Assembly: GCA_964405825.1 (NCBI GenBank)
Contig: CAYOPI010000016.1
Span: forward strand, 1 to 27,497
From: an uncultured Opitutales bacterium
GTDB taxonomy: Bacteria; Verrucomicrobiota; Verrucomicrobiia; Opitutales; JBHJGM01
DNA: 27,497 nucleotides
Direction: 5' to 3'
Below are positions 5,048 through 5,218 of the stretch, in pieces. The translations under genes and the position numbers were made by a program. Numbering within the stretch: position 1 is the stretch's first letter; each line of letters starts with the position of its first letter. The notes beneath the pieces are model-generated. The model did not search any database. It was not told the origin of the DNA and saw only the letters and a program-made list of their open reading frames with translations.

Positions 5048-5106
5048 TCCACACAGCCTCACGCAACAGCCTCCTGCGGTCTGGCTGCCGAGGCTTCTGC
5101 ACTTTT

Positions 5107-5202
5107 CTGGGGATGCGCGAGTTTGGTTGAAGCGGCCCGGCTTGGAACCGGGTACGCCTGCCCCGCTGGCAGGTGTCGGAGGTTCGAATCCTCCTCCCCA
5201 GA
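5107..5202 (+). tRNA. Long (96-nt) type-II tRNA with anticodon TGG on a Ser/Leu-like body, possibly with an 8-bp acceptor
   Basis: Acceptor CTGGGGA/TCCCCAG with a possible 8th pair T5106:A5202. Ser-like D-arm TG-CGC-GAGTTTGGTTGAA-GCG. Anticodon arm CCCGG-CTTGGAA-CCGGG. ~24-nt variable arm with a 6-9-bp hairpin (CCTGCC/GGCAGG). T-arm GGAGG-TTCGAAT-CCTCC. No CCA. Confidence 0.55.
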
Positions 5203-5218
5203 CCTTTCAACACCTTAC

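Follow-up and report, generated by a model that had tools for sequence, protein, structure and literature searches.

The window analysed here, a 27,497-nt stretch of DNA from an uncultured Opitutales bacterium, contains at positions 5107–5202 an intact, selected tRNA gene that joins a long variable arm and a serine-type D arm to the proline anticodon UGG. Long variable arms are expected only in serine, leucine and bacterial tyrosine tRNAs (plus tRNASec). The gene belongs to a conserved family of long-armed tRNA genes with proline anticodons, which occurs in phage tRNA clusters and in a few Verrucomicrobiota chromosomes. Judging from sequence, the best reading is a structurally divergent tRNAPro within a supernumerary tRNA array, probably charged by prolyl-tRNA synthetase (ProRS), and the family most likely carries proline rather than miscoding.

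The long-armed tRNA gene and its array

The gene and its surroundings consist of the following features:

4535–5612, + strand: 11-gene tRNA array holding the long tRNAPro (ARAGORN; 1078 bp)
5107–5202, + strand: class-II tRNA(UGG) gene, C1 to discriminator A73 (96 nt; ARAGORN, Rfam, MFE fold, model R1)
5107–5113, + strand: acceptor stem 5′ strand CTGGGGA, 7 bp with 5195–5201, C1:G72
5116–5134, + strand: serine-type D arm, 3-bp stem CGC/GCG plus G13.A22, loop with G18 G19 U20 U20a G20b
5136–5152, + strand: anticodon arm CCCGG / CTTGGAA / CCGGG, anticodon TGG at 5143–5145, A37 at 5146
5153–5177, + strand: variable region of 25 nt, with U44 (T5153), a 23-nt hairpin and C48 (C5177)
5178–5194, + strand: T arm GGAGG-TTCGAAT-CCTCC (sequence and family covariation)
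5195–5204, + strand: acceptor 3′ strand TCCCCAG, A73 (5202) and encoded CC (5203–5204)
6042–7559, + strand: slipin/SPFH gene just downstream of the array (Pfam Band_7), given as context with no functional link implied

ARAGORN predicts a tRNA-Pro(tgg) at 5107–5204, and Rfam, run with lax filters, matches RF00005 at 5107–5202 with 50.1 bits (E=3e-10; gathering threshold, 29 bits), its tRNA model scoring above an overlapping match from the same clan. The gathering-mode Rfam scan at default settings did not detect the long tRNA(UGG), so genes of this kind are easily overlooked. The five-arm cloverleaf is exactly the minimum free energy (MFE) structure of 5107–5202 (ViennaRNA, −49.8 kcal/mol, z=−2.75), and the expected number of chance matches to the family pattern within the window is 0. 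The bases typical of RF00005 members are all there (U8, A14, G18 G19, U33, the T-loop GTTCGAAT and a 7/5 acceptor/T branch), U8 is followed by G9, and the D stem encloses GAGTTTGGTTGAA. The molecule is of class II, defined by a variable region of more than 10 nt with a stem-loop: the hairpin at 5154–5176 has 9 bp and a 5-nt loop (CCGCT). A73 is followed by CC and then T, so that a complete CCA is not encoded.

A sequence-only reading had proposed a type-II tRNA with a Ser-like D arm, a long variable arm and a Pro anticodon at 5106–5203. ARAGORN, Rfam and the MFE fold confirmed this architecture, and the 3-bp D stem (CGC/GCG in the sequence) and the perfect 5-bp anticodon stem around CTTGGAA (CCCGG/CCGGG, as in the fold) were found as described; the 96-nt tRNA is real, but the gene starts at 5107, not 5106. 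The eighth acceptor pair suggested between T5106 and A5202 did not hold up, as the 20 family members are split at −1 between A (11) and T (9). A fold placing a canonical Ser or Leu anticodon in the 7-nt loop, named in advance as a refutation, was sought and found in no register; the perfect CCCGG/CCGGG stem and the MFE structure speak against it, and a one-base shift produces a C-C clash. Two further possibilities were rejected. The variable hairpin is not an intron or a recent palindromic insertion, given its fixed length and the covariation of 7 of its 8 scored pairs across divergent members, and an archaeal or eukaryal tRNATyr identity (C1:G72 with A73) fails because G34 and U35 are missing from the anticodon.

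The array encodes tRNAs for His, Asp, Glu, Leu(CAG, type I), Lys, Gln, the long Pro, Arg, an irregular tRNA, Gln(CUG) and Phe, and its many tightly spaced genes on a single strand match the description of an L-array or tRNA array unit. Such units are reported to be horizontally transferred, supernumerary, and stress-induced or possibly anti-defence (PMC8421152, PMC12803027), with Verrucomicrobia among the phyla listed as carrying L-arrays (PMC8421152); these descriptions contain neither a class-II tRNAPro nor a conserved slipin linkage. P0001 is 100% identical to the window slipin over 505 aa. The slipin ortholog is preceded by a tRNA array in 7 other genomes, and homologous arrays lie upstream of slipin in other Verrucomicrobiota. 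Array content varies among related genomes and the array-plus-slipin unit is found in differing neighbourhoods, which lends indirect support to a supernumerary, horizontally acquired array; homing endonuclease and RtcB genes are linked to related loci. Neither PADLOC matches nor integrase or mobile-element genes adjoin the window array. As a side observation, A73 and A15:U48 persist in the type-I tRNALeu(CAG) of the window array, as do U1:A72 and G2:C71 in long tRNAGln(UUG) genes whose D arm is Leu-type; by their sequences, these appear to be parallel cases in which acceptor identity tracks the anticodon.

The state of the array raises the question of whether the window copy is a functionless relic, decaying within an array of phage origin. 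Among the neighbouring tRNAs, several of which look defective, there are mismatched acceptor stems, a 6-nt anticodon loop and gene ends that overlap; a promoter scan of the window array found no promoter-like site, and the long form is missing from related arrays in 5 other Verrucomicrobiota genomes. However, the long tRNA itself is intact at 28 of 28 pairs and at every conserved tertiary position, and model R1, built from phage members only with the window sequence left out, gives it 95.3 bits. In addition, the ortholog at locus L052, whose slipin is only ~60% identical to that of the window, differs from the window copy by at least 6 compensatory double changes in the stems, with every helix kept and the D arm identical. 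A relic is very unlikely on this evidence, and the pattern of changes supports selection in a cellular lineage.

A conserved family with a covarying scaffold

The same scaffold was recovered from 9 IMG/VR phage contigs, 20 metagenome contigs, 1 MAG contig and a second Verrucomicrobiota chromosome. In all, 20 distinct sequences come from 31 loci, and L052/L053 contribute one further, giving 21. Chance or an assembly artefact was rejected as their source, as the contigs are independent and come from many samples. In the family alignment 98.9% of cells are paired and double changes occur at 22 of the 28 pairs, values that were reached in 0 of 500 shuffles. Covariation extends to 6 of 7 acceptor pairs, the exception being C1:G72, which is invariant in 19 of 19 sequences, and it supports the canonical 7/5 acceptor/T branch. 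The variable hairpin is 23 nt long in all phage members, and 21 nt with a similar loop (CCGTT) in the L052 ortholog. The D-arm motif GAG..GGTTGAAG and the anticodon loop C32-U33-N-G35-G36-A37-A38 are invariant, with N mostly U but C in L030 and L052; the Verrucomicrobiota orthologs thus carry UGG in the window and CGG in L052, and L030 encodes a type-I UGG tRNA alongside its long CGG tRNA. When the anticodon was left free in the scan, the scaffold was still recovered only with UGG or CGG, and A73 proved invariant in all members though absent from the scan patterns.

The next-best scores of non-members against the family model were 56–72 bits, and type-I tRNAPro(UGG) scored ~40 bits. Among isolated phages and plasmids no close relatives were found, the matches being only tRNASer genes with 72–82% identity. 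Full-text searches of the freely accessible literature turned up no published class-II tRNAPro from either phages or bacteria.

Amino-acid identity and origin

Identity sets for bacterial Pro and Ser tRNAs were taken from Table 1 of PMC9976931, where the Pro set includes C1:G72, A73, G35, G36, G15:C48, U17a, G49 and G37. The window tRNA has C1:G72 (C5107:G5201) and A73 (A5202), both shared by all members, G35 and G36 within UGG, and G15:C48, U17a and G49, with G15 and C48 invariant and U17a and G49 variable in the family. Within the same loci, C1 occurs in 16 of 17 type-I tRNAPro genes and all long forms, as against 8 of ~166 other tRNAs. Type-I bacterial tRNAPro(UGG), frequently the immediate neighbour of the long form in its array, agrees with it at C1:G72, A73, G35 and G36, in the Levitt pair G15:C48 and in the UGG anticodon. 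It differs in architecture, since canonical tRNAPro(UGG) measures 73–77 nt with a 4–5-nt variable loop and a 4-bp D stem, compared with 25 nt and 3 bp in the long form, and usually has G37. In E. coli this base is read by ProRS and carries the m1G37 modification (PMC9976931), whereas every family member has A37; A37 is also present in several type-I phage tRNAPro genes of the same arrays and is tolerated in their tRNAPro.

Serine features are concentrated in the body of the molecule: the large variable region, the core (3-bp D stem, G13.A22 and the 20a/20b insertion), G30:C40 and R4:Y69, together with G20b and one unpaired base on either side of the variable arm. At the sites of other serine determinants (G73, C72 in G1:C72, G2:C71 and C11:G24) the window tRNA has A73, G72, U2:A71 and G11:C24, and pair 2:71 varies across the family (UA in 8, AU in 6, GC in 4 and GU in 1). 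The anticodon is UGG instead of NGA or GCU, and the 7-nt loop contains no Ser register. The Ser/Leu-type body of the sequence-only reading is borne out in the Ser-type core and arm.

This division bears on a serine missense tRNA, in which seryl-tRNA synthetase (SerRS) would charge the molecule through its long arm and core and place serine at CCA/CCG, causing Pro-to-Ser mistranslation or ambiguous decoding. The anticodon plays no part in recognition by SerRS, and for the E. coli enzyme tertiary shape reportedly counts for more than specific nucleotides (PMC9976931); in yeast, a tRNASer engineered to carry UGG is charged with serine and causes mistranslation (PMC6827378). The features that SerRS recognises by shape, namely the long arm with its single unpaired flanking bases, G20b and G30:C40, are all present, G30:C40 being invariant in the family, and no tRNASer gene was called in any family locus, so the long tRNA may occupy the Ser slot. 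However, the family has lost G1:C72 and G2:C71, which most bacterial tRNASer are said to conserve absolutely, as well as the determinant G73 (PMC9976931); invariant Pro-type C1:G72 and A73 stand in their place, and anticodon variation is confined to the Pro box. One carrier phage uses CCA as its chief Pro codon; when the GlnRS gene of carrier phage L004 was aligned with E. coli GlnRS, 10 of 15 CCA codons fell opposite Pro and 0 opposite Ser. Moreover, most carriers encode a normal tRNAPro(UGG) beside the long form, which makes a clean recoding impossible. We regard serine missense decoding as unlikely. Much the same holds for a Ser/Pro dual identity or a Ser-charged spreading tRNA, in which SerRS would hold the long arm and serine would enter at CCA/CCG either wholly or in competition with ProRS; if true, it would amount to a deliberate, horizontally moved proteome-wide ambiguity or a weapon against host translation.

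Leucine has a narrower claim. A73 on a class-II body could create a substrate for leucyl-tRNA synthetase (LeuRS) that delivers leucine to Pro codons in the manner of nematode nev-tRNAs, class-II molecules that accept Leu in spite of their Gly or Ile anticodons (PMC3333845), and A73 is the crucial Leu determinant for an enzyme that in E. coli needs neither anticodon nor variable arm (PMC9976931). Nevertheless, A15:U48 and A20a are missing, with G15:C48 and U20a invariant instead, the D arm is Ser-type rather than Leu-type, C1:G72 plays no part in Leu identity, and CCA aligns with Pro in the codon test, which leaves this reading highly improbable. The suggestion that Ser or Leu is inserted at CCA/CCG is thus disfavoured by the Pro acceptor determinants, the wobble within the Pro box, the lost Ser determinants and the codons of the carrier phage.

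The nearest annotated relatives are cyanophage tRNASer(UGA) genes with 72–82% identity (BLAST), for example those of Synechococcus phages S-RSM4, Bellamy and S-SM2, so the family looks like a tRNASer remoulded into a proline tRNA with its variable arm kept and lengthened. The phage tRNASer(UGA) shares the D-loop motif GAGT-GGTTGAAG, resembles the family in the anticodon stem and T arm, and has the same first variable-arm pairs (GAGG/CCTC) with one unpaired base on each side. The gene order is also similar: in S-RSM4 a tRNAPro follows the tRNASer after 4 nt, and the long form directly precedes a type-I tRNAPro, with 8 nt between them in L002/L035 and 4 nt in L043. The two differ in the anticodon loop (CUUGGAA in the family, CUUGAAA in the phage tRNASer), in the acceptor end (C1:G72 and A73 against G1:C72, G2:C71 and G73, the cyanophage acceptor reading GGAGAGG...G73) and in the variable hairpin (23 against ~14 nt). 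Relative to phage tRNASer(UGA), the changes are therefore A36 to G, G1:C72 to C1:G72, G73 to A73, loss of conservation at 2:71 and a hairpin extended from ~14 to a fixed 23 nt.

Other long-armed tRNAs with unusual anticodons differ from the family in instructive ways. Allo-tRNAs resemble it in their long variable arm, their relationship to tRNASer, their non-Ser anticodons and their occurrence in metagenomes and irregular tRNA polycistrons (PMC5389517). As described by Mukai et al. (2017), their branch is 8/4 or 9/3, their D stem is long like that of tRNASec and capped by a tetraloop, and their discriminator is G73 or U73; they are predicted, and in some cases shown, to insert Ser, Ala or Cys (PMC5389517), whereas covariation here gives a 7/5 branch with no conserved −1:73 pair, a 3-bp D stem with an 11–13-nt loop, and A73 alongside C1:G72. 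Likewise, tRNASec and selC* tRNACys have an 8/5 (13-bp) branch, a 6-bp D stem and UCA or GCA, in contrast to 7/5 and UGG. The likeness to allo-tRNAs, selC-like tRNAs or tRNASec that had been drawn from the sequence does not survive this comparison, and an 8-bp acceptor stem of either type (8/4 or 8/5) was rejected on covariation and the −1 base. The nematode nev- and nov-tRNAs of Hamashima et al. (PMC3333845) are also lineage-conserved class-II molecules with class-I-family anticodons; they are eukaryotic, have a Leu-type body and are Leu-charged against their anticodon, whereas the acceptor end of the present family has been altered to match its anticodon. Engineered tRNASer(UGG) mistranslators share the Ser body and UGG, but they retain a Ser acceptor end and are serylated and toxic, in contrast to the Pro-type end of the natural family (PMC6827378, PMC9258585).

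Proposed function and implications

In the proposed scenario, a phage tRNASer(UGA) lineage would have become a proline tRNA by switching both its acceptor end and its anticodon. A bacterial-type ProRS would charge the long tRNA with proline through C1:G72, A73, G35 and G36, and the UGG form would read CCA/CCG as proline, with CGG variants reading CCG. Class II synthetases, ProRS among them, reach the tRNA from its variable-loop side, so that the 9-bp arm might get in the way of ProRS. Among the 106 flanking ORFs scanned, no phage ProRS or SerRS lies beside the long tRNA; the synthetases found there are GlnRS, a class-II D/K/N synthetase and a TyrRS-like protein. The carrier phages also encode the tRNA repair and maturation genes Tpt1, cREC_REC and Thg1.

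Proline charging alone is an insufficient explanation for the strict constraint on arm length. The fixed 23-nt hairpin suggests a partner that gauges the arm, and this, together with reports that some irregular array tRNAs are charged yet unused in translation (PMC5389517) and the several defective-looking tRNAs in the window array, is consistent with a tRNA-shaped RNA acting mainly outside decoding, poorly charged or uncharged, as a decoy or sponge for a nuclease or SerRS or as a substrate of a tRNA-dependent transferase. The anticodon loop, the 12-bp 7/5 branch and the tertiary bases are, however, invariant, as expected of an EF-Tu and ribosome binder, and selection for decoding best accounts for the U34-to-C34 switch within the Pro box (L030, L052), making a role mainly outside decoding quite unlikely. 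Under the preferred reading of a proline-charged tRNA, the molecule might serve, within horizontally spread tRNA arrays of phages and chromosomal L-array-type clusters, as a supernumerary tRNAPro of different structure. The long arm, Ser-type D arm and A37 could conceivably keep it in service once the normal host tRNAPro has been damaged, has run short or lacks modifications, as might happen under translational stress or attack by tRNA-targeting defence nucleases. We infer from this a possible anti-defence or back-up role.

Collectively, a tRNASer lineage appears to have been switched to Pro in its anticodon and acceptor-end determinants while its Ser-type arm was kept and lengthened, in contrast to the known exceptions, allo-tRNAs and nematode nev-tRNAs, which are thought to be charged against their anticodon. 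If ProRS charges the family, it would represent a natural, complete identity swap across tRNA classes and a ready test of how a class IIa synthetase, EF-P, TrmD and the ribosome handle a class-II tRNAPro with A37. If SerRS charges it instead, phages would be spreading a Pro-to-Ser mistranslator. Either way, the family offers a testable handle on the odd duplicates of ordinary tRNAs in phage and chromosomal arrays.

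Fold of the long-armed tRNA gene

ARAGORN calls a tRNA-Pro(tgg) gene at 5107-5204 (+), and the Rfam tRNA model, run with relaxed filters, scores 50.1 bits on 5107-5202 (E=3e-10). The default gathering-mode filters of Rfam skipped this 50-bit tRNA, and routine pipelines are likely to under-annotate long-arm tRNAs of this kind. In ViennaRNA, a five-arm cloverleaf is both the minimum free energy and the centroid structure (-49.8 kcal/mol, z=-2.75).

Parts of the long tRNAPro (window 5107-5202, +)
Acceptor stem: 7 bp, with C1:G72
Positions 8 and 9: U8 and G9 present
D stem: 3 bp plus G13.A22, enclosing GAGTTTGGTTGAA
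Anticodon arm: stem CCCGG/CCGGG and loop CTTGGAA, with anticodon UGG followed by A37 and A38
Variable region: 25 nt, consisting of U44, a 9-bp hairpin with a 5-nt loop, and C48
T arm: GGAGG-TTCGAAT-CCTCC
3' end: discriminator A73, then CC, then T

The sequence-only reading, which had described a long-arm tRNA with a Pro anticodon, is borne out save on two points. The gene begins at 5107 rather than 5106, and there is no eighth acceptor pair of the kind proposed, since the base preceding C1 varies among the 20 distinct family members (A in 11, T in 9).

A long-armed family and its phage tRNASer relatives

A search pattern running only from D loop to T loop matched nine IMG/VR viral contigs and one MAG contig (one genome per species, 185,579 species), and 20 metagenome contigs carry family members; the family comprises 31 loci with 20 distinct sequences. 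With the anticodon left free at the same spacing, the viral search returned the same loci again and the metagenomes gave only UGG, one CGG (locus L030) and one unrelated Ser-type tRNA(CUU), while relaxing the arm length in the pattern search added no further members. Across the 19-sequence family alignment, standard pairs fill 98.9% of cells and both sides change in 22 of 28 pairs; none of 500 shuffles reached these values, and slid controls were only ~40-48% paired. Under a covariance model trained on the 18 members other than the window tRNA, that tRNA reaches 95.3 bits (training members, 99-104), compared with 60-72 bits for Ser-type tRNAs and at most 56 for other tRNAs, type-I tRNAPro among them at ~40. 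The long tRNAPro is a member of this family, not an accident.

Invariant across the family are C1:G72, A73, U8, G9, C12:G23, G13, A14, G15, C48 and the anticodon loop C32-U33-N34-G35-G36-A37-A38, of which C1:G72, A73, U8 and G9 were left unspecified in the scan patterns. The acceptor pairs from 2:71 to 7:66 are free to vary (at 2:71, UA in 8, AU in 6, GC in 4 and GU in 1), and the variable hairpin measures 23 nt in all phage members, its sequence differing with compensation. The copies on metagenome contig L034 and viral contig L007 are identical. One variant (L006 5896-5989, L041 5904-5997), whose 3' acceptor strand TACCCTC cannot pair with the 5' strand CTAGTAA and which ARAGORN does not call, has probably undergone disruption or recombination.

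BLAST with a family member against the isolated-phage collection returns nothing but genes annotated as tRNA-Ser (72-82% identity), from the cyanophages S-RSM4, Bellamy, S-SM2, S-SKS1 and S-H9-1 and a Stenotrophomonas phage, and those inspected have the anticodon UGA. Aligned with these genes, the family is nearly identical from D arm to T arm, sharing GAGT-GGTTGAAG, CTGGT-CTTGA/GAA-ACCAG, C-GAGG...CCTC-C and GTGGGTTCGAATCCCAC. However, A36 of the phage tRNASer is G in the family, G1:C72 with G73 becomes C1:G72 with A73, and the variable-arm tip is ~9 nucleotides longer. In S-RSM4, a tRNAPro starts 4 nt after the tRNASer gene, and many family loci have a type-I tRNAPro(UGG) 4-8 nt from the long tRNA.

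tRNA arrays of Verrucomicrobiota and phages

The window copy lies in an array within ordinary chromosomal genes (Nramp, DegT, a PFL-like glycyl radical enzyme and its activase, MoaC/MoeA/MoaE, OEP/HlyD/ABC) at a G+C content of ~65%, and no defence or mobile-element hits were found in the window. Per 1000 codons, the genes of the window contain 23.5 CCG and 4.3 CCA.

Window 4535-5612, one strand: array of 11 tRNA genes (ARAGORN)

The slipin gene directly 3' of the array places the window in Verrucomicrobiota, near Puniceicoccaceae and Opitutales. An array of 7-12 tRNA genes lies directly 5' of the slipin/SPFH gene or its ortholog in all eight Verrucomicrobiota genomes with upstream DNA (the window, 4535-7559, and L045, L047, L052, L055, L057, L058 and L060). 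The eight arrays vary in content and lie among different genes, so that array and slipin together look like a unit that is conserved and possibly mobile. In L047 and L054, the slipin gene has an HNH_5 gene on its 3' side; L058 has RtcB nearby.

A homologous long tRNA with anticodon CGG occurs in a Puniceicoccaceae MAG (L052, GCA_040830495.1; L053 carries the same array). It has a D arm identical to that of the window copy, C1:G72, A73 followed by an encoded CCA, and a hairpin of 21 nt whose loop is similar; its score on the family model is 77.8 bits, and both copies neighbour type-I Leu(CAG), Lys, Gln and Arg tRNAs. At least six compensatory double changes separate the two, which argues for purifying selection on the long tRNA in a cellular lineage. 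While the window copy is intact, several other tRNAs of its array look defective, including Glu at 4713-4785 (U6.U67), Arg(acg) at 5219-5290 (G1.G72) and Phe at 5537-5612 (A3.C70 and a G73 discriminator), and the array may be partly decaying or deliberately non-canonical. ARAGORN also reports, at 5386-5462 (+), an irregular tRNA whose anticodon loop has 6 nt ('cc') and which shares 3 nt with a tRNA-Gln(ctg) that has mismatches at its first two acceptor pairs (both within 5386-5533, +); similar overlapping tRNAs end the arrays of L055, L057 and L060 on the 3' side.

The array also holds a type-I tRNALeu that mirrors the long tRNAPro.

Window 4800-4876 (+): tRNALeu(CAG), 77 nt, short variable loop, retaining A73 and the Leu-type A15:U48

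Related Verrucomicrobiota arrays carry it too (L052 4713-4789, L055 4973-5049, L057 3866-3942, L058 3296-3372, L051 35-111), and it is 84% identical to a 77-nt tRNA-Leu gene of Corynebacterium phage StAB, where ARAGORN reads the anticodon as CAA.

Phage ORFs flanking the family encode terminase, portal, homing endonucleases, sigma factors, a TyrRS-like protein, Thg1, Tpt1 and cyclic-phosphate-processing receiver domains. A GlnRS (L004 2231-3832, -; E=6e-175 to E. coli GlnRS) and a class-II D/K/N (Asp/Lys/Asn-type) synthetase (L043 3153-4430, -) each adjoin a tRNA of matching isotype; neither ProRS nor SerRS was seen among these ORFs. No tRNASer or tRNATrp occurs among the ~150 distinct tRNAs called in the family loci (L001-L010, L023-L044), the 20-gene arrays of L003 and L008 included. 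Other normally type-I tRNAs take class-II-like forms here.

Class-II-like tRNAs in family arrays
L010 3763-3846, L030 2798-2882, L034 1333-1416, L042 725-810: long tRNAGln(UUG), 84-86 nt
L034 3931-4015: long tRNAGlu(UUC) with extra variable hairpin (this and the next three, 82-89 nt)
L023 2281-2365: long tRNAThr(UGU) with extra variable hairpin
L035 6613-6701: long tRNALys(UUU) with extra variable hairpin
L001 363-444: long tRNAAsp(GUC) with extra variable hairpin

The long tRNAGln(UUG) genes form a second remoulded family of class II. They have a Leu-type D arm (GGTGGAATTGGCTAAACAC), a short variable hairpin, U1:A72 and G2:C71 kept, and G73 in three of four; each shares its array with at least one normal-length tRNAGln gene, directly adjacent in L010 and L034. 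In the remoulded tRNAs of the phage and window arrays, such as Gln(UUG) and type-I tRNALeu(CAG), the acceptor end fits the anticodon, which supports agreement between anticodon and identity in the long tRNAPro as well.

Several unusual genes were observed besides. A metagenome contig of 1.6 kb encodes a 96-nt Ser-type tRNA (L039 385-480, -) with acceptor GGATAGG, G73 and a Ser D loop but a CUU (Lys) anticodon, a candidate for Lys-to-Ser missense decoding. Two tRNASer(GGA)-like genes with G73, canonical except for an 8-nt anticodon loop, CUUGGAAA (ARAGORN anticodon 'tgga'; L019 2117-2210, Pseudoxanthomonas sp. NC8; L020 6509-6599, a Dehalococcoidia MAG), could be frameshift-suppressor-like tRNAs or sequencing errors. 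A tmRNA gene (L034 8105-8476, tag peptide AEDIMSIPTSLTKGKSVFAKNTELAFAA) lies inside a tRNA-rich stretch (17 tRNA genes/10 kb).

Amino acid identity and relation to known tRNAs

Bacterial identity sets (PMC9976931, Table 1) were compared with the window tRNA.

Identity elements in the window tRNA
Pro: A73, G72, G15:C48, U17a, G49, G35 and G36 present; G37 absent
Ser: large variable region, G30:C40 and R4:Y69 present; G73, C72, G2:C71 and C11:G24 absent
Leu: A73 present; A15:U48 and A20a absent

In the family loci, C occupies position 1 in 16 of 17 type-I tRNAPro and all long forms, and in 8 of ~166 other tRNAs. A37 is a weak argument against proline, since several type-I phage tRNAPro genes of the same loci have it. 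The wobble base of the long tRNAs changes only inside the Pro box: L030 has a long CGG tRNA beside a type-I UGG tRNA, and the Verrucomicrobiota orthologs have UGG in the window and CGG in L052. Release of the Ser determinants from constraint, together with the gain of invariant Pro determinants, is the pattern that an identity switch would predict, and charging by ProRS is therefore favoured, if with modest confidence.

The Ser-type arm, read by SerRS through shape, is still present, so that other readings keep some probability. Serylation, and with it the miscoding contemplated in the sequence-only reading, seems unlikely. When the GlnRS gene of the carrier phage L004 was aligned to E. coli GlnRS, 10 of 15 CCA codons fell on Pro and none on Ser; CCA is the main Pro codon of this GlnRS gene. 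A role outside decoding is quite improbable, and leucylation, for which A73 is the one Leu element present, would be very surprising.

Identities as allo-tRNA, tRNASec or selC* tRNA were rejected on the 7/5 branch, Ser-type D arm and A73, which place the long tRNAPro outside the allo-tRNA/selC-like class to which it had been likened. Like nev-tRNAs and allo-tRNAs, it is a class-II tRNA with a non-canonical anticodon, but its acceptor end matches that anticodon; full-text searches found no description of it, and it would be new to the literature searched. Arrays of this sort have been described as horizontally transferred, supernumerary, stress-induced or possibly anti-defence (PMC8421152; PMC12803027). 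Within such an array, the odd body may shield the tRNA from nucleases.
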